A program made the translations under genes and the position numbers. The notes below the pieces were generated by a model. The model was not told the DNA's origin. It made no database searches and saw only the letters and a list, made by a program, of their open reading frames with translations. A stretch of DNA of 32,000 nucleotides. Origin: Trichodesmium erythraeum IMS101 (GTDB lineage Bacteria > Cyanobacteriota > Cyanobacteriia > Cyanobacteriales > Microcoleaceae). Positions 2,888 through 32,000 of this stretch are shown here, piece after piece. Where the stretch lies: contig NC_008312.1 of NCBI RefSeq assembly GCF_000014265.1, positions 3,450,001 through 3,482,000 on the forward strand, written 5' to 3'. Position 1 is the first letter of the stretch; each line of letters begins with the position of its first letter.

Positions 2888-3419
2888 ATTAAGTACTTGG
2901 ACAAAATTAATTTAACATTTTTCAGAGAGTGGGTAGTAGGAAGTCGGGAGAAAGGGAAAAACATATTTGATCAGTAGATCAAAAATAATTTCGCTTACCT
3001 ACTTTGAGACTATTTGTCAAGTTAAGATTAAGACAGGTAGAGTGTTTAATATTATTGAGTTGCCGCGGAAAGTTAATAGTTGGCTCTCTTGAATATATGT
3101 TGCCTCCTAACCTATCCTACTGGAGTGACGCCCCTAAAAATGTAGGTTCTATAAGAATGAAGTGAAATTCAACAATGGCTCTGTTGTTGTTGGGTTACCC
3201 TGATAGAGTATTATTACGTTCGATGCTACCTAACCTAGATTTATTAAACCATTATAGCTGTGTCGGTCTGCTACTAGACTGATAGACCTTTACTAGGTTT
3301 GAATAAATTTTCAATGTCAAAAACTCAAACTATTCTTAGGACATTGGTCAAATTAAAATTATTGACAAGCCATGTAATATTAGGAAAACAAAAAAACTAA
3401 TTGCTATTAATTCATCCTT

Positions 3420-5543
3420 TTAATTCAATTTAATTTCTGTTGAAATATCCTGTTTTTTCTCCAATGATAATCTTTCCTGAATTGGTATAGTAATATAAAC
3501 TGTAGTTCCTCGCCCTATACCTTCACTATAGAGATGAATATTACCATTCATCATTTCCACCAGTCCGCGAGCCATAGCTAATCCTAATCCATTTCCACCA
3601 AATTTACGAGTTTTTGTACCATCTACCATAACAAAAGGCTGAAATAATTTATCCTGTTCTTCTGGATCAATACCAATTCCTGTATCTTGAATAGTAACTA
3701 AAACTTGATTAACTTTATGAGTATGAGCATTAACTAAATTATTCTGATTTTCAGAAAAAATACATTGATTATATTTTCTACAAATAGAGATATCAATATT
3801 TCCTTTTTCTGTAAACTTAATAGCATTACTAATAACATTTTCAAAAACCTTCTGTAACTCTTTTTTGTCAACATAAACAAGTATTTTTTCTTCAGAAGCA
3901 TTTAGTTTTAAAACCAAAGATTTTTGTTCAAGATCGTATCTAAATATATCCACAGTTTCTTCTAATAACTTGATGATATTGATATTCTCAAATGTCATAT
4001 ATAAATTTCTTGCATCAATTTTACGAATATCCAGGATATCATCAATAATTCTTAGCAAATGAATAGCTGAATCATTAGCTTGTTTCAAGAACTGTATTTC
4101 TTCTTCCCTAGTATCACAAAAACCATCATAAATTATTTGCAGTGAACCAATAATACCATTAAGTGGAGTTCTTAACTCATGGGAAATATTAGCTAAAAAT
4201 TCACTTTTTAACTGGTTAGCAACCTGAGCTTCTTTAGAAGCTACTTCTATTTTATCAGCCCACCTATTTAGCCTTTCTACCATCTTCTGTAATGAAACTG
4301 CTAGTTGATTAAACTCAGGAATTTTTAGATCTTGAGGTACTTTACTGGGAGCATTTAAATCATTTAAAGTAATAGCATAATCTCGGAGTTTCTTCAAAGG
4401 AATAGCTAAATCACGAGCCAAAAAAATACTTGCTATGATACTAGCACCAAGTAAAAATAAAATTAGAATAATTAGAACCTTTTGAACTTCTCTAAGACCA
4501 GATAAAGCAAAATCTATAGGTGTAATTGCTAAAACAACCCACACTTTATCATTATCTCTATCTATAGGGCTAGGAATAGCAACATACCCTGCTAAAAATT
4601 CATTATCTTCTGATAATTTAAGTCTTAACAATTTAGGCAATATCTCTTTTAGTTTATCAATAATTTCTCTGAAAGTATTTTTACTTCTATCACTTCCCTG
4701 ATTTTTACTCAGAATATCTGTTTCCTCAATAGAAAATATATGGGCAAAATGTTTTTGACCTTCCTCTGCCTTTTTCATAATACTTTCTAGTTTCTTTGCA
4801 GTCTGTGTGTCTGACAATTCAGAAATCCTACGCCCTAGTTTCCTAGAATCTAGACTAGCTAATATCCTGTACTCGGGGACATTAATTACTACAGTTGAAC
4901 CTGTAAATGAGCCTCTTTCTCTATTTGTTGGCATTGGTAAAGCTGACTTAATACTTAAGGCATATCGCAATTTTCTTTCGCCAGCTTCACTAACATACAC
5001 TGGTACACTCCAAACTAAGCTAACTTGTGTTTTTTGATTTACTTTCTGACCATTTGATTCGCTATCTGCGCTTAACAGTTCTAGGATGCTGTAACTCACA
5101 TAAATATTATACTTGTCCCTAAAAAGTTGTTTTTGCTGTTGAGGCCATATATTTTCCGGTAAAGAATCTATTCTTTCAGTACCACAAGTATTCGCGACGA
5201 TCTCCTCAGTCCGTAAGTTACTCAATTGAACGCAACTTATCTGAGTAGATAACATTTCGTCTAACCGTTTAATATAACTTTGATGCTCTTCAACTGTACC
5301 AGATTCAAGTACATAGCTTTCACTCGCACTAACTAGACTTGACTTTAGTGATGTTGCCCATTGTTGAAGATATTCCGCTTTTCTATCTGCACTTTCTTTA
5401 AGGTTTTGACGAGCAGTGTTTAGAAAAGTAGAACGTGCTTGTCTGTAAATTATATACTGACCCAATACTAGTCCTGATATCGTAAGTAGTAAAATTCGCG
5501 ACAATAGAATCCTATTAAAAGAGGATTGAAATTTCTTAATCAT
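3420..5543 (-). CDS. Membrane-bound sensor histidine kinase (large extracytoplasmic sensor region, HAMP-like linker, HisKA, HATPase_c)
   Basis: 707 aa with ATG start. H-box SHELRTPLN. The ATP-lid region reads IQDTGIGIDPEEQDKLFQPF and GGNGLGLAMARGLVEMMNG. Two hydrophobic segments (near aa 12-32 and aa 355-378) flank a sensor region of about 320 aa. No cognate response regulator is adjacent. Confidence 0.9.
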   Translation of the reverse strand: MIKKFQSSFNRILLSRILLLTISGLVLGQYIIYRQARSTFLNTARQNLKESADRKAEYLQQWATSLKSSLVSASESYVLESGTVEEHQSYIKRLDEMLSTQISCVQLSNLRTEEIVANTCGTERIDSLPENIWPQQQKQLFRDKYNIYVSYSILELLSADSESNGQKVNQKTQVSLVWSVPVYVSEAGERKLRYALSIKSALPMPTNRERGSFTGSTVVINVPEYRILASLDSRKLGRRISELSDTQTAKKLESIMKKAEEGQKHFAHIFSIEETDILSKNQGSDRSKNTFREIIDKLKEILPKLLRLKLSEDNEFLAGYVAIPSPIDRDNDKVWVVLAITPIDFALSGLREVQKVLIILILFLLGASIIASIFLARDLAIPLKKLRDYAITLNDLNAPSKVPQDLKIPEFNQLAVSLQKMVERLNRWADKIEVASKEAQVANQLKSEFLANISHELRTPLNGIIGSLQIIYDGFCDTREEEIQFLKQANDSAIHLLRIIDDILDIRKIDARNLYMTFENINIIKLLEETVDIFRYDLEQKSLVLKLNASEEKILVYVDKKELQKVFENVISNAIKFTEKGNIDISICRKYNQCIFSENQNNLVNAHTHKVNQVLVTIQDTGIGIDPEEQDKLFQPFVMVDGTKTRKFGGNGLGLAMARGLVEMMNGNIHLYSEGIGRGTTVYITIPIQERLSLEKKQDISTEIKLN

Positions 5544-23877: not shown

Positions 23878-26800
23878 TTAGAGAGTTCTCCCGCCATCGC
23901 AGACAAGACGAAAACCAGAATTGATGATGTGGACGTCGCGCCTAAGACCGTCGGTGCGAACCGCAGAACGGCAAATATCAGGACTGTTGTTCCAAGAACC
24001 GCCCCGCAGCGGTGAGCGTTGTTTGTCTCCATTTAGCCAAGTGCTGCCGTCTATAGGAGCATTTCGATAATTATCATGCCATTCATCACCACACCATTCC
24101 CAAACGTTTCCGTGCATATCATATAACCCAAAACCATTGGCTGAAAACTGACCTACAGGAGTTGTTTGCTTTCTATGTTCTCCTTTTGGCTCATCCGCAT
24201 AAGTCACTGACGCATTATAATTAGCTAACTCTCCTGTGATCGTTTCTCCACAGCTAAAAGGTGGATAACTTTCTCCCTTTCCTAGGCCTAAAGCTTTTCT
24301 CTGTGCTCGACAAGCATATTCCCATTCCGCTTCACTGGGTAGTCTATAATTCCTTCCTGTTAATTTCGATAGTCTTTTACAAAATTCTACAGCTTTGTAC
24401 CAACTCACGGCCTCAACTGGTCTCTGCCATCTATCTATACCTTGGTATGGTTTTTTGAAATAAGATGGCTCTGGGTTTAGGTCTAATTCTACTTTTAAGT
24501 CTGTTCGAGAAGCGATCGCTCTCCACTGTCCTTGAGTAACCGGATATTTGCCCATAAAAAAGGGAGAAACAGTCACATTATGCTGGGGGCGTTCTGTATC
24601 TCTGTTAAGTTTTTCACTTTCAGGAGAACCCATGGTAAAAGTACCACCAAGAATAGCTACCATTTCTAGTTCTAACTGTTGCGCAATAGTTTCCCTAAAA
24701 TATCGAGCAAACTTAGTATCTTGCTTAATAATTTTTCCTCCTCGGTCAACTGTTGGCGTTGTATATTCATAGTGAAAAACCTCAAGGTCGGAGGGAAATG
24801 AAACCCCTTCTCTTTTTAAACTCCCAACAAAAGTTTTCCTGACAGAACACAATACACGAAAACCAGTATTGTTGAAACGGCTGTAGCTCATATTGATCTC
24901 AGAGCAATACGCAGAAAGGGACTTATCAGGACGGCTGCTCCAAGAACCTCCGCGGAGGGGTGAACGGTTTTTATTTCCATCTAGCCAAACACTTCCATCT
25001 ACAGGAGCACCATTATAGTTTTCATGCCATTCATCACCACACCACTCCCTTACGTTTCCGTGCATATCATATAACCCAAAACCATTGGCTGAAAATTTAC
25101 CTACAGGAGTTGTTTGCTCTCTATATTCTCCTTTTGGTTCATCGGCATAAGTCACTGACGCATCATAATTAGCTAGCTCTCCTGTGATCGTTTCTCCACA
25201 GCTAAAAGGTGGATAACTTGCTCCCTTTCCTAGGTCTAAAACTTCTGTCTCTGCTCGACAAGCATATTCCCATTCTGCTTCACTGGGTAGTCTATAATTC
25301 CTTCCTGTTAGTTTTGATAGTCTTTGACAAAATTCTACAGCTTCGTAGCAATTCACGTTTTCAACTGGTCTCTGCCATCTATCTATACCTTGGTATGGTT
25401 CTTTAAAAGTAGATGGCTCTGGGTTTAGGTCTAACTCTACTTTTAAGTCGGTTCGGGAAGCGATCGCTCTCCACTGTCCTTGAGTAACCGGATATTTCCC
25501 CATAAAAAAGGGAGAAACAGTCACATTATGTTGGGGGCGTTCTCTATCCGTACTACCTTTTTCACTTTCAGGAGAACCCATAGTAAAAGTACCACCAGGA
25601 ATAGCCACCATTTCCAAATTAATACCATCCGCAAGAAATTCCCTGAAATAAGGAGCGATATAAGCTGTTGTGTTGATCACTTCCCCCCGTCGGTTAACTG
25701 TGGGCGTTTTATAAGCAAAAACTTGATTTTCTTTAGGAAGTTTTTTCCCCTTATAAGCAAAAACTTGATTTTCTAACTTAGGAAGTTTTTTCCCCTCAAC
25801 ATTCTCAGAAATTTCATTTTGAGACCTTTCTATTTCCCGAGCAAAATCAGCATAAGGTCCTCCTAATCTTTTTAAAACTTTAGTTGCAACCGTAGCAAAA
25901 TATTTAACATCTAAATCTAAAACATTCCTCTCAGTTTTTAACCTTTCCAACTCATCAGGTTTTTTCAATAAAGCCAAAAATTCTCGAGGACTATTCCCCA
26001 GTCTATTAGCAAAATCCTGAGAAATCATAGTAATAATTTCCTGAGCATTCTTTCTCGGACTATCCTTCAGCAAAATATCTCTAATTTCCTCATCAATAAA
26101 CTGATATTGAACCTGATCAAAATCAATATCAGGAGTAATCAAAGATTGAGGTTTAAGAATATTACCGAGAAATACCTCAGCCACATGAACCTGTTGAGAA
26201 TCTCTCAGAAAATTCTTTTGAATTGACCGTACAATAGGTAAATTAATCACTGGTGCAGCAGAAAGATACTCAGCTAACTTTTGTGCTGTTTTTGAAGAAC
26301 TCATCTTAAAATTATACAGCCGTTTTTCACCTGTTAAATTTGCTCTTTCTTGGTCTGAGACTGTTTGATTCTGGTCTAGTTTTAATAAAGAAGAAAAAAC
26401 AAAACCACCAGCACCAATAATTCCTTTTCCTACCACCATTTCGCTCCAAGTTTCTATTAGTTCTGGTTCCAAACTAAATACAGGAACTTTGATTCCAGTT
26501 TGTAAATTATCATTACTCCCAAAAAAAACTTCCCTAACCAATAAATTAGAATTAGGAACCCTAGGCTGTAAACAATCCAATTGTACCATTGCCCCTAAAC
26601 TCAGAGCCGTTCTTAACCACAAACGTCGAGGTAAAACTTGGATAATTGCCACAATATTGTACTTTCCCCAATTTTTTAAGAGAGAAAAAAACTGACCATT
26701 ACGCCAAATCTTGCTAACACAATCACTAACTACTAAAATCAAACGACGACCAGTAGGATCGATAAGTTTTTGAGGATAAAAAAGATGATGAGAATAAGGA

Positions 26801-27468
26801 TTTTGTTTAATCCCTTGTTTAAGGCAAATTTTTCCCTTTGTGTCTGTCAAAATTCTCCAAGTTTTTACATTCCGAAAAATACCATAACGTTTGAATAATT
26901 GTTGTAATTCTTGAATATTTTTATCCCAAAAAATCATAGAATCACTTTGGTCAACCACTAAAGCCAAATCAAACTGAAGTTCCAGAGGATATTTGAGAAT
27001 AGGAACACAAAGTCCTTCTAATTGAGCAATATTTTCAACTGTAGCTTTTTCATCTAATAAAACTGCTTTACCATAAGAAATATATTCCATTAGAGGACGA
27101 AAAGCGCTAGCAATTTTCAAAGGGTGACGCAGTGAAGAAACATCAGGAGCTTTTATGGATAAATCACTTTTATTAGAAGAAGTAGAATTAGTTTTAGGAG
27201 TAACTTCAGCGTAGGAATTATTTTCAGGAATTTTCGGATAAAAACTATCTTGAAATTGTGTAGTAGAAGATCTTGTAGAAGATATTGTAGTATTTACTTT
27301 TTCACCTGTAGTTATTTGATTTTTAGAGGGTATTTTTTTATCAACTGAAGAGGGATATTGACGCCGCATTGCCAACCAAAGATTTTCGGCAATTTCTGTA
27401 CCTGTTAGTTTTAACTCTTTTTCTAATAGTCTAATTAAATTATCAAATTTATCAGTTTTTTTAGTCAT
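23878..27468 (-). CDS. vWA-domain protein (SAV_2336-like N-terminal helix + vWA) fused to two tandem FGE-sulfatase (SUMF1/PvdO-type) domains
   Basis: 1196 aa with ATG start. The N-terminus reads TEIAENLWLAMRR and is followed by an S/T-rich linker. The vWA region reads LLDEKATVENIAQ...FDLALVVDQSDSMIFW...RRLILVVSDCVSKIW...VAIIQVLPRRLW, with MIDAS DxSxS = DQSDS at 26938-26952. Two FGE-sulfatase modules (aa ~586-876 and ~902-1192) carry MVAIPGGTFTMGSP, RPQHNVTVSPFFMGKYPVTQGQW, YRLPSEAEWEYACRA, GLYDMHGNV(W/R)EWC and RGGSW. Confidence 0.85.
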   Translation of the reverse strand: MTKKTDKFDNLIRLLEKELKLTGTEIAENLWLAMRRQYPSSVDKKIPSKNQITTGEKVNTTISSTRSSTTQFQDSFYPKIPENNSYAEVTPKTNSTSSNKSDLSIKAPDVSSLRHPLKIASAFRPLMEYISYGKAVLLDEKATVENIAQLEGLCVPILKYPLELQFDLALVVDQSDSMIFWDKNIQELQQLFKRYGIFRNVKTWRILTDTKGKICLKQGIKQNPYSHHLFYPQKLIDPTGRRLILVVSDCVSKIWRNGQFFSLLKNWGKYNIVAIIQVLPRRLWLRTALSLGAMVQLDCLQPRVPNSNLLVREVFFGSNDNLQTGIKVPVFSLEPELIETWSEMVVGKGIIGAGGFVFSSLLKLDQNQTVSDQERANLTGEKRLYNFKMSSSKTAQKLAEYLSAAPVINLPIVRSIQKNFLRDSQQVHVAEVFLGNILKPQSLITPDIDFDQVQYQFIDEEIRDILLKDSPRKNAQEIITMISQDFANRLGNSPREFLALLKKPDELERLKTERNVLDLDVKYFATVATKVLKRLGGPYADFAREIERSQNEISENVEGKKLPKLENQVFAYKGKKLPKENQVFAYKTPTVNRRGEVINTTAYIAPYFREFLADGINLEMVAIPGGTFTMGSPESEKGSTDRERPQHNVTVSPFFMGKYPVTQGQWRAIASRTDLKVELDLNPEPSTFKEPYQGIDRWQRPVENVNCYEAVEFCQRLSKLTGRNYRLPSEAEWEYACRAETEVLDLGKGASYPPFSCGETITGELANYDASVTYADEPKGEYREQTTPVGKFSANGFGLYDMHGNVREWCGDEWHENYNGAPVDGSVWLDGNKNRSPLRGGSWSSRPDKSLSAYCSEINMSYSRFNNTGFRVLCSVRKTFVGSLKREGVSFPSDLEVFHYEYTTPTVDRGGKIIKQDTKFARYFRETIAQQLELEMVAILGGTFTMGSPESEKLNRDTERPQHNVTVSPFFMGKYPVTQGQWRAIASRTDLKVELDLNPEPSYFKKPYQGIDRWQRPVEAVSWYKAVEFCKRLSKLTGRNYRLPSEAEWEYACRAQRKALGLGKGESYPPFSCGETITGELANYNASVTYADEPKGEHRKQTTPVGQFSANGFGLYDMHGNVWEWCGDEWHDNYRNAPIDGSTWLNGDKQRSPLRGGSWNNSPDICRSAVRTDGLRRDVHIINSGFRLVCDGGRTL
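23893..25713 (-). repeat. In-frame 948-bp (316-codon) tandem duplication of the FGE-sulfatase module inside the vWA gene
   Basis: Module 1 spans 24841-25713 and module 2 spans 23893-24765. Long identical runs include the 41-residue QHNVTVSPFFMGKYPVTQGQWRAIASRTDLKVELDLNPEPS. The antisense track ORFs at 24261 and 25209 (MDNFLPFLGLKL / MDNLLPFLGLKL) are exactly 948 bp apart. Confidence 0.9.
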
Positions 27469-27612: not shown

Positions 27613-28758
27613 TCAAAATTCATCCGTAGTTGATAAACCCTTCAATAATAAAGCTTGTAAGTCATCAGTAAAAGCTTCTGGACTAAGGTTATTGCGAATA
27701 TAAATAGCATTCAATAACTGATCCGTTGCCCGTTCCTGTTCGTCCTTTTCCAAAAAAGCTTCAATAAGTTCCTCAGTTGTTGTCTTCAAACTTTCACCTT
27801 GTTCCTCATCCTGAAAATGAGCCTTAATAATAGTTTGAAGAGCTGCCGCACCCGGGTCTGGCATTCTTATTCGGAGACAGCGGCGCACAAAAGCCGGAGG
27901 AAAGTCCCGTTCCCCATTACTAGTCATAATTACAATAGGAAAACTAGAACAATGAACTCTTCCCCCTATAATAGAAGCTTTGATACCCGCATCTTCCGTC
28001 CGCACTTTTACTTTTGTTGGTTGATCATTTTCAGAACTTTTTTCAGACCTATCAGCCCAACGGACCAACTCAGGAATTTCAAACCTTCCCTCCTCAAATA
28101 AGTGAAGCAAATCATTCGGCAAATTAATATCACTTTTATCTATCTCATCAATTAATAATACTCTCGGATATAAAGAAGGTAAAAAAGCTGTTCCTACCGG
28201 GCCCAAAGTGACATATTGGCCAATATTTTGTAAGTTCTCCCTATTTAACTGAGAATCTTGTAACCGAGCGATCGCATCATAACGATAAAGTCCATCGACC
28301 AAATTAGAACGAGCTGTAATGGGCCAATTCAATACGGGCCCTAATTTTAATTCCTGTGCGATCGCATAAGCCAAGGAAGTTTTACCCGAACCAGGGTTTC
28401 CTGTGACCAAAAGAGGCCGTCGTAAATATATTGCAGCATTTACGGCATCAACAACATTAACAAGTGGTTTTTGACCATCATCTTCCTCAGTTATTTCTGA
28501 GGAATAAACACGAAATTTTTCACCCTTTTCTCTACCCCTTTTATTATCATCAGACTCAGCTAAAATTTGAATATTTTGCCAATCTTTTTCCAGTTGTTTT
28601 TTTAATTCAGAATCTTTTTCTATCTCTTGAAATTTTCGCCAAGGGGGAGGATCAGGAAGGTCAGCAATATTAACATTATGTGTATTTCCATCACCATAGA
28701 AAAAAAGCCAGGCTTGTTGATTTTCCATCATATTATTTTGGGGATAAATTTTTACCAC
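27613..28758 (-). CDS. MoxR-like AAA+ ATPase (partner of the vWA protein)
   Basis: 381 aa. Walker A GNPGSGKTSLA (28378-28401 covers GNPGSGKT) and Walker B VLLIDEIDK (28135-28161). There is an N-terminal extension with PDPPPWRKF. The start is a GTG at 28758, preceded by AAGGAG with a 6-nt spacer. The gene begins 37 bp after the stop of the upstream gene. Confidence 0.8.
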   Translation of the reverse strand: MVKIYPQNNMMENQQAWLFFYGDGNTHNVNIADLPDPPPWRKFQEIEKDSELKKQLEKDWQNIQILAESDDNKRGREKGEKFRVYSSEITEEDDGQKPLVNVVDAVNAAIYLRRPLLVTGNPGSGKTSLAYAIAQELKLGPVLNWPITARSNLVDGLYRYDAIARLQDSQLNRENLQNIGQYVTLGPVGTAFLPSLYPRVLLIDEIDKSDINLPNDLLHLFEEGRFEIPELVRWADRSEKSSENDQPTKVKVRTEDAGIKASIIGGRVHCSSFPIVIMTSNGERDFPPAFVRRCLRIRMPDPGAAALQTIIKAHFQDEEQGESLKTTTEELIEAFLEKDEQERATDQLLNAIYIRNNLSPEAFTDDLQALLLKGLSTTDEF

Positions 28759-28795: not shown

Positions 28796-30325
28796 TTAAA
28801 ATTGATTAAAAGCAGGAATGTTGATTGGTTTGCGGTCATTACAATCACATAAAATTCTTAAATGGTAACCTAAAGATTCTGTTTTAGAACTATCAGCAAT
28901 AGCCAGGTCTGTTTTACGAATATCAAAAATTTGTGTATATAATTGATTAACATCTGACAAATTTTCTAATTCTATTAAATGATTGAGCTTATCTATTAAA
29001 GATTGATAATGGGAATCATTTAAATTATCCCTTTGATTTTTCCTTTTTATCCATAGACATAAAGGAACTCCCTTTTCTAAAATAACTTCAAATAAATTAA
29101 ATGCTTTATTATTTCCTTTAGGTAAACCACAGGATATTTTCAGGATAATTTTATCCTCTAATTTATTTCCTAGCTGTTTTCTTTTTTGTGGGTTAGACAA
29201 GAATTCATTTAATTTATCTTCCACTTCAAAAGCTAAAATATTATTTGATATAACTGGTTTTTTCTCCATAATTTTCCAGTTTTTTTTGCAACAGTTTAGC
29301 CAACTAGTTTTACCTGGTTGTAATCGTTCTAAAGAGCGTAAAATTACAGGATATTCTTCACAAATAGCTTTTTGTTTTGCTTTTAAAGCACTAGGAATTT
29401 TAAACTCAAAATCTTTAATAAAAAGTTCTCTCTTTAAAAATAGCTCAAGTTTTAAATCATAAGTTTTATTTTGTTGCACTAGTTTACGCAAATATACCTC
29501 TTGAACCTGCTCAATGAATTTATAAATAATATTAGGAATTTGCTTTTCTGAATATCCATTTTCCTCAAAATCTTCTTTCTTCAGCTCAACTTGAATATTT
29601 TTAGTATGACCCCAGTTTTCAATAAACTCACCTTGAACATTAAATGTTTTTTTATGATTTTTAATCTGACTTCCCATAGGAAAAATAGTTATCAAAAGAT
29701 AGCTTTGGAGATCAGATGGTTTGTCTTTTTTATCAGGAATATTTATATCTGAGCAATTTGTTTCTATCCATTTTCTCAATCTTTGCTTGAGATAATCTCT
29801 AATATCTTCAGCATTCAAAATTTTAACTAAATATTGTTCTACAAAATCTATGAACTTTGGATCATAGTAAAAATAAAAACTATCTCTATCACTAAAAAGC
29901 AAACCATTACCATTTTTTTCAGTTTTTTCAGTTTCTTCAGTTAACTCTAATAAATGCTCTTCTAATTTATCTATATTTTCAAAGTCCCCAAAAAAAATCC
30001 CAAAATTTTGGTTTTCTGAAAAAATTTTTTTTAGTAAAAAAATAAGAGTAGAAAGTTGTGAATATGTTTGGTAAAGTTCTTCAATTAATGGATAGTCCTC
30101 ACTAACAATTTTAACAAAATCAACAATAAGTTCTGTATTATTTAGCTCAATGATTAAATTAATCAACCTTGTATGATAGGTATCTCCTTTAATTTTATTA
30201 TAAAAATTAGCTCCAAATTTCTCTGGATATTCAGAAAATATACTTGTCAGTTTATCCTCACTTAATACCTTTTCAATCTCTTCACGAAATTTGATTCTTT
30301 GCTTATCAGTAAATTTCATTTGCAA
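28796..30325 (-). CDS. EAD-like (Death-like effector-associated domain) N-terminal module fused to a VMAP-like (vWA-MoxR-associated protein) body
   Basis: 509 aa. The first ~77 aa are about 85-90% identical to the upstream 85-aa ORFs. The remainder is K/E/I/L-rich with no catalytic motif I recognise. The segment LELFLKRELFIKDFEFKIP...EEYPVILRSLERL resembles, from memory, the VMAP C-terminal domain core. Its position directly upstream of the MoxR and vWA genes fits the family. The track start at 30325 is TTG; an ATG lies 6 nt downstream at 30319. Confidence 0.6.
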   Translation of the reverse strand: MQMKFTDKQRIKFREEIEKVLSEDKLTSIFSEYPEKFGANFYNKIKGDTYHTRLINLIIELNNTELIVDFVKIVSEDYPLIEELYQTYSQLSTLIFLLKKIFSENQNFGIFFGDFENIDKLEEHLLELTEETEKTEKNGNGLLFSDRDSFYFYYDPKFIDFVEQYLVKILNAEDIRDYLKQRLRKWIETNCSDINIPDKKDKPSDLQSYLLITIFPMGSQIKNHKKTFNVQGEFIENWGHTKNIQVELKKEDFEENGYSEKQIPNIIYKFIEQVQEVYLRKLVQQNKTYDLKLELFLKRELFIKDFEFKIPSALKAKQKAICEEYPVILRSLERLQPGKTSWLNCCKKNWKIMEKKPVISNNILAFEVEDKLNEFLSNPQKRKQLGNKLEDKIILKISCGLPKGNNKAFNLFEVILEKGVPLCLWIKRKNQRDNLNDSHYQSLIDKLNHLIELENLSDVNQLYTQIFDIRKTDLAIADSSKTESLGYHLRILCDCNDRKPINIPAFNQF

Positions 30326-30354
30326 TGTACTTACATTACTATTTTATCTACTAT

Positions 30355-30612
30355 TTATAAATCTTGAGCAAAATTATGATACTCATACCTAACAACTTTA
30401 ATAAAATCAAAAATAAGTTCTCTATTATTTAGCTCAATGATTAAATTAATCAACCTTGTACGATAGTCACCTCCTGGAATTTGATTATAAAAATTAGCTC
30501 CAAATTTCTCTGGATATTCAGAAAATATACTTGTCAGTTTATCCTCACTTAATACCCTTTCAATCTCTTCACGAAATTTGATTCTTTGCTTATCAGTAAA
30601 TTTCATTTGCAA
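30355..30612 (-). CDS. Stand-alone EAD-like module, array unit A (allele ...GANFYNQIPGGDY...)
   Basis: 85-codon ORF. The track start is TTG and the ATG 6 nt downstream (30606) would give 83 aa. The helical pattern FTDKQRIKFREEIERVLSEDKLTSIF...RTRLINLIIELNNRELIFDFIKVV fits the EAD1-like L..Q...L...L...F....L..ml....L.......(loop)....v..Li.....g....L layout. Confidence 0.6.
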   Translation of the reverse strand: MQMKFTDKQRIKFREEIERVLSEDKLTSIFSEYPEKFGANFYNQIPGGDYRTRLINLIIELNNRELIFDFIKVVRYEYHNFAQDL

Positions 30613-30641
30613 TGTACTTACATTACTATTTTATCTACTAT

Positions 30642-30899
30642 TTATAAATCTTGAGCAAAATTATGATACTCATACCTAACAACTTTAATAAAATCAAAAA
30701 TAAGTTCTCTATTATTTAGCTCAATGATTAAATTAATCAACCTTGTACGATAGTTATCTCCAGAAATTTGATTATAAAAATTATCTCCAAATTTCTCTGG
30801 ATATTCAGAAAATATACTTGTCAGTTTATCCTCACTTAATACCCTTTCAATCTCTTCACGAAATTTGATTCTTTGCTTATCAGTAAATTTCATTTGCAA
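30642..30899 (-). CDS. Stand-alone EAD-like module, array unit B (allele ...GDNFYNQISGDNY...)
   Basis: Starts exactly 287 bp from unit A. It is identical to unit A except for the 11-nt patch at 30754-30764 and the A/D codon at 30784. Confidence 0.6.
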   Translation of the reverse strand: MQMKFTDKQRIKFREEIERVLSEDKLTSIFSEYPEKFGDNFYNQISGDNYRTRLINLIIELNNRELIFDFIKVVRYEYHNFAQDL

Positions 30900-30928
30900 T
30901 GTACTTACATTACTATTTTATCTACTAT

Positions 30929-31186
30929 TTATAAATCTTGAGCAAAATTATGATACTCATACCTAACAACTTTAATAAAATCAAAAATAAGTTCTCTATT
31001 ATTTAGCTCAATGATTAAATTAATCAACCTTGTACGATAGTCACCTCCTGGAATTTGATTATAAAAATTATCTCCAAATTTCTCTGGATATTCAGAAAAT
31101 ATACTTGTCAGTTTATCCTCACTTAATACCCTTTCAATCTCTTCACGAAATTTGATTCTTTGCTTATCAGTAAATTTCATTTGCAA
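30929..31186 (-). CDS. Stand-alone EAD-like module, array unit C (allele ...GDNFYNQIPGGDY...)
   Basis: Starts exactly 287 bp from unit B, with the same ORF structure. Confidence 0.6.
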   Translation of the reverse strand: MQMKFTDKQRIKFREEIERVLSEDKLTSIFSEYPEKFGDNFYNQIPGGDYRTRLINLIIELNNRELIFDFIKVVRYEYHNFAQDL

Positions 31187-31215
31187 TGTACTTACATTAC
31201 TATTTTATCTACTAT

Positions 31216-31473
31216 TTATAAATCTTGAGCAAAATTATGATACTCATACCTAACAACTTTAATAAAATCAAAAATAAGTTCTCTATTATTGAGCTCAATG
31301 ATTAAATTAATCAACCTTGTACGATAGTCACCTCCTGGAATTTGATTATAAAAATTATCTCCAAATTTCTCTGGATATTCAGAAAATATACTTGTCAGTT
31401 TATCCTCACTTAATACCCTTTCAATCTCTTCACGAAATTTGATTCTTTGCTTATCAGTAAATTTCATTTGCAA
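31216..31473 (-). CDS. Stand-alone EAD-like module, array unit D (protein identical to unit C)
   Basis: Starts exactly 287 bp from unit C. It differs from unit C only by a synonymous T-to-G change at 31291. Confidence 0.6.
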   Translation of the reverse strand: MQMKFTDKQRIKFREEIERVLSEDKLTSIFSEYPEKFGDNFYNQIPGGDYRTRLINLIIELNNRELIFDFIKVVRYEYHNFAQDL

Positions 31474-31502
31474 TGTACTTACATTACTATTTTATCTACT
31501 AT

Positions 31503-31760
31503 TTATAAATCTTGAGCAAAATTATGATACTCATACCTAACAACTTTAATAAAATCAAAAATAAGTTCTCTATTATTGAGCTCAATGATTAAATTAATCA
31601 ACCTTGTACGATAGTTATTTCCAGAAATTTGATTATAAAAATTATCTCCAAATTTCTCTGGATATTCAGAAAATATACTTGTCAGTTTATCCTCACTTAA
31701 TACCCTTTCAATCTCTTCACGAAATTTGATTCTTTGCTTATCAGTAAATTTCATTTGCAA
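31503..31760 (-). CDS. Stand-alone EAD-like module, array unit E (allele ...GDNFYNQISGNNY...)
   Basis: Starts exactly 287 bp from unit D. The patch at 31615-31625 carries a third allele. Confidence 0.6.
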   Translation of the reverse strand: MQMKFTDKQRIKFREEIERVLSEDKLTSIFSEYPEKFGDNFYNQISGNNYRTRLINLIIELNNRELIFDFIKVVRYEYHNFAQDL

Positions 31761-31789
31761 TGTACTTACATTACTATTTTATCTACTAT

Positions 31790-32000
31790 TTATAAATCTT
31801 GAGCAAAATTATGATACTCATACCTAACAACTTTAATAAAATCAAAAATAAGTTCTCTATTATTTAGCTCAATGATTAAATTAATCAACCTTGTACGATA
31901 GTCACCTCCTGGAATTTGATTATAAAAATTATCTCCAAATTTCTCTGGATATTCAGAAAATATACTTGTCAGTTTATCCTCACTTAATACCCTTTCAATC
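31790..32000 (-). CDS. Stand-alone EAD-like module, array unit F (5' end cut by the window edge)
   Basis: The stop codon at 31790-31792 is exactly 287 bp from unit E's. The sequence through 32000 matches unit C, and the ORF continues past the window end. Confidence 0.55.
   Translation of the reverse strand, partial: IERVLSEDKLTSIFSEYPEKFGDNFYNQIPGGDYRTRLINLIIELNNRELIFDFIKVVRYEYHNFAQDL

Follow-up and report, generated by a model that had tools for sequence, protein, structure and literature searches.

Why should the operon of a bacterial conflict system carry a row of small genes that encode an adaptor domain and nothing else? The question is raised by a stretch of 32,000 nucleotides from the genome of Trichodesmium erythraeum IMS101 (NC_008312.1, positions 3,450,001 to 3,482,000), referred to here as the window; coordinates count from its first letter unless a contig is named. 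At its right end near-identical units of 287 bp, each encoding an adaptor module of the EAD type, follow one another upstream of a gene for a VMAP-type protein. We find that five such free-standing copies, called solos in the following, lie between two genes that carry the same module, EAD6, in fused form: a CHAT peptidase gene, which bears it at the C-terminus (the CHAT tail), and the VMAP gene, which bears it at the N-terminus (the VMAP head). We are highly confident of this anatomy and of an origin of the units by unequal crossover between CHAT tail and VMAP head. The explanation as a whole, in which the crossover-born EAD6-only array acts on the docking of CHAT to VMAP, we regard as probable on balance.

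Tandem Repeats Finder reported a single array at 30102-32000 with a period of 287, 6.6 copies, 97% matches, no indels and a score of 3623. The tandem array described in an earlier note on this DNA, which had been made from the letters alone, is thus present. It contains five complete open reading frames (ORFs) of 85 amino acids with a TTG start on the minus strand (30355-30612, 30642-30899, 30929-31186, 31216-31473 and 31503-31760), each 258 nt long including the stop and set at a spacing of 287 nt. As the note had it, every unit possesses its own start, a 258-nt ORF, a stop and an identical 29-nt leader, and because a stop codon closes every unit the array is one of genes and not a single repeat protein. 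Positions and period of the units could likewise be taken over from the note; the strand, however, is minus, and an ATG two codons past the TTG is the likelier start. The ATG yields a product of 83 amino acids, the form used by RefSeq and by metagenome gene calls.

Counted from the ATG, the solos on the minus strand are u1 (Tery_2231, 30355..30606), which has Ala39 as does the VMAP head; u2 (Tery_2232, 30642..30893), with the loop variant SGDN; u3 (Tery_2233, 30929..31180), of consensus type; u4 (Tery_2234, 31216..31467), whose protein equals that of u3 and whose DNA differs from it by one synonymous change at unit column 212; and u5 (Tery_2235, 31503..31754), with the loop variant SGNN. Tery_2231-2235 are deposited as ABG51460-64, where the identity of 2233 and 2234 matches that of u3 and u4. 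The five solos thus make up four distinct protein variants, which differ at four residue positions, and they carry no domain besides EAD6. From stop codon to next ATG there are 35 nt, the 29-nt spacer followed by TTGCAA. This junction, found at 30320..30354 in front of the VMAP gene, recurs in identical form at 30607-30641, 30894-30928, 31181-31215, 31468-31502 and 31755-31789 (all minus strand). The 29-nt spacer itself is the same in all copies, including the one preceding the 509-aa VMAP gene (matches start at 31789, 31502, 31215, 30928, 30641 and 30354), and columns 1-29 of the unit hold no variable position. Seven of 287 columns vary among the six copies. Five of the seven fall into one linked patch at unit columns 165-174 (30468..30477 on the minus strand in the coordinates of u1; codons 46-49 in the TTG frame), which sits in the loop before the fourth long helix of the structure model described below. 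The alternative allele of the patch, present in u2 and u5, is the allele of the CHAT tails of two other loci (L004 and L009), and the SGDN loop of u2 is also seen in CHAT tails of other lineages. This pattern points to patchy conversion rather than new mutation. Exact look-ups of the variant units u2 and u5 returned no matching contigs; u3 is identical over 252/252 nt to solos of TARA and other contigs. The ratio of nonsynonymous to synonymous rates (dN/dS) among the solos involves about four independent events, too few to interpret.

The earlier note had spoken of at least six solos and of an array running off the window with its true copy number unknown. What looked like a sixth unit belongs to the CHAT gene Tery_2236, whose last part, the C-terminal EAD6 with the stop codon (31790..32000, minus strand), is cut by the window edge; the reference assembly has five solos, and the CHAT gene follows past the edge. 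The stretch at 31790-32000 agrees at 211/211 nt with the 3' end of a CHAT gene carried by the near-identical contig L010, and the 467-aa CHAT protein of that contig is exactly ABG51465.1, the product of Tery_2236 in IMS101, which sits between the fifth solo (Tery_2235, ABG51464) and Tery_2237. The L010 protein matches Pfam CHAT with an E-value of 7.5e-22. Its ORF is intact and contains the motifs HFIGHG and QACETG, consistent with a caspase-type His/Cys dyad. The last ~75 residues are the module of the solos and end in YEYHNFAQDL before the stop. A CHAT gene is found directly upstream in metagenome contigs with the same locus as well (TARA, scaffolds of Lee et al., Logan, and metagenome-assembled genomes, MAGs). 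Inspection to the right of the window, as the note had proposed, thus revealed an EAD-effector fusion, and the VMAP EAD does not have only bare EADs to pair with; the apparent lack of an effector partner arose because the window edge cuts the CHAT gene. The note had also found it odd that the FGE domains of the operon carry no EAD. An FGS effector fused to the vWA protein is normal in such systems and, being fused, needs no EAD. With the window boundary and the normal FGS-vWA fusion recognised as its sources, the oddity of an effector-less adaptor is gone.

In full, the gene order is CHAT-EAD6 (Tery_2236), the solos Tery_2235 to Tery_2231, EAD6-VMAP (Tery_2230), MoxR and the vWA-component-like protein with two FGS domains. 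Judged by its domains, the operon fits a canonical cyanobacterial VMAP-type vWA-MoxR ternary conflict system. The module occupies the VMAP protein's N-terminus and the C-terminus of the CHAT protein, and its position in the operon is the same in all lineages. In systems of this class the N-termini of VMAPs bear either a peptidase of the trypsin or caspase superfamily or an EAD (Kaur, Burroughs, Iyer & Aravind 2020, eLife; PMC7159879). EADs have been proposed to couple components by homotypic contacts, adjacent EADs being the most alike, and EAD6, like EAD2 and EAD9, mainly recruits signalling components such as peptidases to VMAP (PMC7159879). The FGS effector of cyanobacterial VMAP systems is, as a rule, joined straight to the vWA component (PMC7159879).

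Where did the units come from? We compared CHAT tails, solos and VMAP heads of five lineages by DNA alignment. In the locus L002 the solo cannot be told from the VMAP head over alignment columns 1-76, which hold the leader, the start codon and about 15 codons; from about column 66 onward, through the stop codon, it has the sequence of the CHAT tail. These stretches overlap in a shared segment, TTTCGTGAAGA, at unit columns 66-76 (30566..30576, minus strand), which recurs in every unit and marks the putative crossover interval: upstream of TTTCGTGAAGA the unit is VMAP head, downstream it is CHAT tail. To judge by the alignment, the units are chimeras of the VMAP leader, start and ~15 codons with the EAD body and stop of the CHAT tail. 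CHAT tail and VMAP head are EAD6 paralogues that lie tail to head at a distance of 287 bp, and chimeras of this kind are the hallmark of unequal homologous crossover between them. The earlier note had taken the unit for a copy of the leader and of the 509-aa gene's first ~77 codons. The leader and head part of that derivation stands, whereas the last 8 codons and the stop come from the CHAT tail, and in other strains the whole unit body from about codon 15 derives from the CHAT tail. In this sequence of events, a crossover between the C-terminal EAD6 of CHAT and the N-terminal EAD6 of VMAP created the chimeric 287-bp unit; further unequal exchange then changed the copy number, moved small allele patches between units and overwrote the EAD of VMAP in the T. 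erythraeum lineage.

Rearrangements at the same place are seen in other lineages. A VMAP scan of genome contigs gave only two related MAG loci. In L025 (GCA_010692535.1), whose CHAT gene is 84% identical at the DNA level, an independent tandem duplication of 897 bp at the same boundary lies at 3198-4321; its copies are 100% identical. Here a 286-aa ORF joins an EAD, ~200 aa of VMAP-M12 and a CHAT-tail EAD so that an adaptor stands at either end; a solo-like ORF shows a weak precomputed match to EAD6, and a scaffold gap lies within a further head/tail copy. In L011 (7294-9963) and L022 (7355-10024) CHAT and VMAP form one in-frame fusion ORF of 889 aa (465+507-83), which switches from one gene to the other in a 38-nt stretch identical in CHAT tail and VMAP head. 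The fusion is ambiguous between a reciprocal deletion product and an artefact, because its junction lies in just such an identical stretch, where k=31 graphs branch. From the variety of rearrangements across lineages the junction reads as a recurrent recombination hotspot. Within it the 35-nt spacer between CHAT stop and VMAP ATG is near-invariant in Trichodesmium lineages (L008 762-796, L009 8964-8998), with coding flanks that differ by 10-30%, and its length is kept in L025 (3162-3197); the spacer may be under a translational-coupling or regulatory constraint. Several of the related systems are decaying, with CHAT fragments or many stops (L008 196-761, L009 8709-11027, L004 1-1147), and in decaying Trichodesmium lineages only a truncated VMAP of 295 aa remains and two ORFs take the place of MoxR.

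Exchange has reached the VMAP gene itself. IMS101 and TARA strains are 98% identical in the VMAP body and only 74-76% in the VMAP head, and the IMS101 head is 90.9% identical to the strain's own solos. For comparison, the identity of tail to head is ~70% in the three loci L002, L009 and L025, and L008 reaches 84%. The VMAP EAD of IMS101 has thus been overwritten by tail/solo-type sequence over unit columns 77-262. The gene conversion into the VMAP N-terminus that the note had envisaged has therefore left a visible trace, the head being tail-type over these columns. An independent T. erythraeum MAG from the Great Barrier Reef (GBR) has the same VMAP head, with 1 mismatch in 1,629 nt, and a u1-type solo upstream. 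Between the IMS101 head and a solo there are 13 nonsynonymous and no synonymous changes in 72 codons; every other pair of EADs has a dN/dS of 0.41-0.77 and many synonymous changes. The binomial probability of 0 synonymous changes among 13 is ~0.01 at a dN/dS of ~0.56 and ~0.065 under neutrality, which is suggestive only. The VMAP body (28796-30088) shows 21 nonsynonymous changes against 1 synonymous between IMS101 and a TARA locus (L001), a dN/dS of ~4.9, and MoxR has a dN/dS of 0.2. Divergence of the VMAP body fits a diversifying sensor domain, and the substitution pattern presents the T. erythraeum locus as one under diversifying pressure, with no decay.

We also assessed the identity and fold of the module. 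Window units and VMAP head match PF19958 (EAD6) with 16-22.9 bits (E 1e-4 to 0.014), which is below the gathering threshold of 27 bits. EAD6 is the sole Pfam family matched by the window copies, and model positions 2-71/72 of 75 are aligned. Support is stronger through homologues: of 25 homologous modules that could be aligned, 18 match EAD6 at E<=0.01, the best with an E-value of 1.4e-28, their Pfam matches are to EAD6, EAD1 and EAD7 only, and for the full-length CHAT homologues P0043 and P0060 both EAD6 and CHAT are among the precomputed annotations. The note's assignment of the module to the EADs is thereby borne out. A profile search of 1.84 billion representatives gave only 66 relatives: VMAP-sized proteins with the module N-terminal, CHAT-like proteins with it C-terminal, and short ORFs or fragments. 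The 90%-identity protein cluster of P0079 pools CHAT peptidases (465-467 aa) with VMAPs (507-509 aa), apparently because of the shared EAD, which could mislead automated annotation.

An AlphaFold2 model of the module is all-helical (predicted local distance difference test, pLDDT, 94.2; predicted template modelling score, pTM, 0.84) with helices at 5-18, 21-30, 32-35, 48-61 and 65-75. These four long and one or two short helices agree with the definition of EADs as small, non-enzymatic and mostly all-alpha domains, and do not demonstrate the six-helix Death-like fold that the note had expected. Foldseek against the PDB gave no match at E<=0.001 (best E 3.8). The top template modelling (TM) scores, all at E>5, were those of the Apaf-1 CARD (0.55/0.50), the CARD-like domain of DR6 (0.51) and the NLRP14 PYD (0.37), and a profile search of PDB sequences returned no Death-fold protein, only an annexin at E 0.025. 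The predicted module is thus EAD6-like and all-helical, and its likeness to CARDs is a weak resemblance, not demonstrated Death-like membership.

Are the five copies real, or did the reference assembly expand one solo, or none, into five? The IMS101 genome is a single record of 7,750,108 bp, which was presumably finished by Sanger sequencing. In favor of an artefact, short-read assemblies of near-identical strains (L010, L002) have 0 or 1 solo, and no independent contig resolves two or more, so that more than one copy is documented only in the IMS101 reference. A 359-nt cyclic unitig (L007, 287+72 nt) was considered as proof of tandem solos and rejected, because a single solo yields the same graph cycle; it shows at least one solo only. 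Scans of JGI metagenomes gave 0 matches for the three-leader pattern (two or more solos) and also for the single-leader pattern and are hence uninformative. The short-read record itself, on the other hand, bears the marks of a collapsed repeat. Relative to the window, L010 and L012 have all their 31-34 mismatches inside repeats (the FGS pair at 24148-25456 and the EAD copies at 30174-30270), and their 'VMAP head' bears the majority bases of solo type, as expected of a collapsed multi-copy repeat. Within the EAD, four scaffolded assemblies are interrupted by a 100-N gap at one common point, and Logan contigs with 100% identity to the window end at 30144-30165, the onset of repeat identity; one further Logan contig (L019) begins deeper in the VMAP gene, at 29956. 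Mis-assembly, gaps or chimerism affect all the examined short-read assemblies that extend to or across the repeat, and MAG surveys will for this reason miss such arrays. The units of the reference, moreover, are not all identical: each adjacent pair can be distinguished, whereas an assembler loop gives identical copies. The CHAT tail at the window edge and the boundary of u1 with VMAP are both reproduced elsewhere, the latter in the GBR MAG. Expansion by the assembly is therefore very unlikely, and the count is to be read with the caveat that an identical u3-type unit could be miscounted by one or more.

What, then, might the solos do? Each solo product of 83 aa is the EAD alone, its body is CHAT tail, and the ORFs follow directly downstream of the CHAT gene. 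Promoter and terminator scans gave nothing above chance, with no terminator within the array, and an Rfam search gave no match. Since the units lie between operon genes, have the VMAP start and are interrupted by no terminator, expression with the operon is to be expected. With a VMAP translation start and a CHAT stop they would be co-transcribed and translated, so that one CHAT gene and one VMAP gene would be matched by five solo ORFs. Since the solo product is identical to the docking domain of the peptidase, competition with CHAT-EAD6 is expected in turn: free EAD6 would compete for the EAD6 of VMAP and thereby damp signalling or raise the threshold of activation, and solo copy number would act as a dial adjustable by recombination. 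A competitive decoy would be the likeliest effect of the solos. That such an effect is real and has been selected is a tentative proposal, somewhat short of an even chance. Several observations weigh against it. Tery_2230-2236 are not mentioned in the searchable full texts and have no match in one proteome supplement. Intact solo ORFs are uninformative on selection, because the construction of the units and their youth, seen in inter-unit differences of at most 7/287, guarantee them. EAD-EAD binding is a prediction only in the literature. In L008 (Trichodesmium MAG_R03) CHAT tail and VMAP head are adjacent with no solo; L009 (MAG_R02) has a CHAT-tail remnant, then a truncated VMAP and a split MoxR, again with no solo; and L004 has a solo after a CHAT gene that has decayed and whose tail is divergent, an arrangement not expected if the solos were purely decoys against CHAT. 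To these is added the documentation of multiple copies by the IMS101 reference alone.

The main rival takes the solos to be a neutral by-product, that is, junk ORFs of unequal crossover in a repeat-rich genome, tolerated and unselected and with no regulatory role. We consider it a serious possibility, though not the probable one. It accounts for the integrity of the ORFs, which is automatic from their chimeric construction, for very young copies with 7 variable columns of 287, and for relatives with zero solos, a possible fusion or an 897-bp duplication, as at a recombination hotspot; no expression data were found in the searchable full texts or in one proteome supplement, and only ~60% of the IMS101 genome is coding (PMC4143802). 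It accounts less well for the presence of at least one solo in many strains, identical over 252/252 nt where the VMAP body differs by 2-15%, and for a T. erythraeum locus that is under diversifying selection and not decaying, and a free copy of a docking domain would hardly be inert if translated. The solos could alternatively serve as a donor cassette bank, a reservoir of EAD variants that convert the EAD of VMAP or CHAT and so diversify or match the pair. The overwritten VMAP head of IMS101 (unit columns 77-262), the linked 5-column patch shuffled among units and equal to alleles of other lineages, and the general likeness of adjacent EADs (PMC7159879) would agree with such a role. Four protein variants in five units, differing at four residue positions, are a very poor bank, however; the CHAT tail alone suffices as donor, with conversion also in the solo-free L008 (84%), the outcome is homogenisation and not diversification, and the variation is not like that made by a diversity-generating retroelement (DGR), for which the window has no template repeat. 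We therefore hold a bank to be unlikely. Quite unlikely, too, is an amplifier, in which free EAD6 would co-polymerise with the EADs of CHAT and VMAP into filaments or bridges and raise the recruitment of peptidase. Death-fold domains can polymerise (PMC7159879), and the best, though weak, structural likeness of the module is to CARDs (Apaf-1 TM 0.55/0.50, DR6 0.51), but there is no significant structural match (best Foldseek E 3.8), the helices are four long and one or two short instead of six, and the animal adaptor-only proteins known act as inhibitors (PMC3775265). A wider and rather doubtful idea is that tail-to-head EADs are as such a recombination device, which would let the pair co-evolve, interconvert split and fused forms, and make copy-variable adaptor-only proteins that titrate peptidase docking.

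Returning to the remainder of the operon, the VMAP gene Tery_2230 (ABG51459.1, 509 aa, 28796..30319, minus strand) encodes an N-terminal EAD6 (~codons 1-76, 30092-30319) followed by VMAP-M12 (PF20015, E 2.3e-92) and VMAP-C (PF20028, E 3.6e-15), and these Pfam matches support the note's reading of it as VMAP. A MoxR-type AAA+ ATPase gene (27613..28758, minus strand) lies 37 nt downstream; its Pfam matches, AAA with 33.9 bits and AAA_5 with 31.5 bits, both exceed the cut-offs and belong to generic AAA models that are not MoxR-specific. The last gene (23878..27468, minus strand) encodes a vWA-component-like protein of 1196 aa with a SAV_2336 N-terminal domain and two FGS/FGE-sulfatase domains (NCBIfam NF041121, 383 bits; Pfam FGE-sulfatase, E 2.3e-113, two stretches) and no Pfam VWA match. 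Its vWA-FGS linker contains a 42-nt tandem duplication (25709-25796, 2.0 copies, 93% matches) through which KKLPK(L)ENQVFAYK occurs twice in the protein. Over 707 nt the FGS repeats share ~90-91% identity, against only ~73% in their C-terminal segments (23881-24078 and 24829-25023), so that they differ most where DGR variable regions usually lie; a DGR at another site of the genome may act on these ends. No DGR template repeat for FGS or for the loop patch was found in the window. DGR-type diversification of the loop patch in the solos was considered and dismissed, as the variable columns (C/A, C/T, A/T, G/A, G/A, G/A and A/C) match the alleles of paralogues. On the other side of the operon, Tery_2237 (ABG51466; L010 6034-6966) encodes 311 aa, keeps its place 37 nt upstream of CHAT wherever a Trichodesmium locus reaches that far, and has no Pfam match; L025 has a 309-aa ORF at the same position. 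Tery_2237 may be a further component of the system.

How much of this is new? The system class and EAD6 are known already, and the IMS101 record lists the solos as hypothetical proteins. The Aravind-group papers searched, including PMC7159879, describe neither tandem EAD-only ORFs nor a chimeric origin of such ORFs nor conversion of adjacent EADs; the wording 'solo' or 'EAD-only' is absent from the text of PMC7159879, whose section 30 covers fused EADs only. Whatever the function of the solos, the locus provides a mechanism, crossover plus conversion, for the similarity of adjacent EADs noted by Kaur et al., and it hints at how fused architectures and EAD-coupled ones might pass into each other. 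Provided that the solos are produced and bind, bacterial conflict systems would parallel the regulation of the animal inflammasome or apoptosome in regulatory logic and no longer in parts alone. To our knowledge there is no earlier prokaryotic case of adaptor-only proteins regulating a caspase-like immune or death module, and this would be the first, with a dosage that simple recombination can change. Should tail-to-head EADs indeed be a recombination device, a colony-forming cyanobacterium would possess a heritable and quickly adjustable threshold of death or immunity, reached by the route of the primate CARD-only proteins.

Unequal crossing-over is a general mechanism of tandem gene amplification and concerted evolution. 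Like other products of that mechanism the array has a fixed period and a chimeric junction, its copy number differs between strains, its conversion tracts are patchy, and the fusion is a putative product of reciprocal deletion; it differs in that the repeat spans a gene boundary and each unit regenerates a small ORF from two genes. Compared with known VMAP ternary systems (PMC7159879), the operon has the same components in the same order, namely an EAD-tagged caspase-superfamily peptidase, EAD-VMAP, MoxR AAA+ and a vWA-like component fused to FGS effectors, and is set apart by five extra ORFs that are EAD alone, without fusion. With the Death-like superfamily (CARD, DD, DED and PYD; bDLD1-3) the module has in common that it is a small all-helical adaptor with a predicted homotypic role and that its best TM-scores are to CARDs. 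It has no significant structural or sequence match there and consists of four long and one or two short helices, and in Kaur et al. the Death-like homologues are the bDLDs only, EAD6 not being among them. [quoted passage not shown] Like the solos they consist of the adaptor only, lie beside the caspase-type protease gene from which they were copied, and are young local duplicates; COP is 97% identical to the CARD of caspase-1 (PMC3775265), and the solos are identical to the CHAT tail. No homology between the two groups has been demonstrated, and inhibition, shown for the COPs, is here proposed by analogy. The CARD-only genes, finally, were made by duplication and truncation of a protease gene, whereas the solos were made by crossover of the adaptor segments of two genes, which left the copies within the operon.

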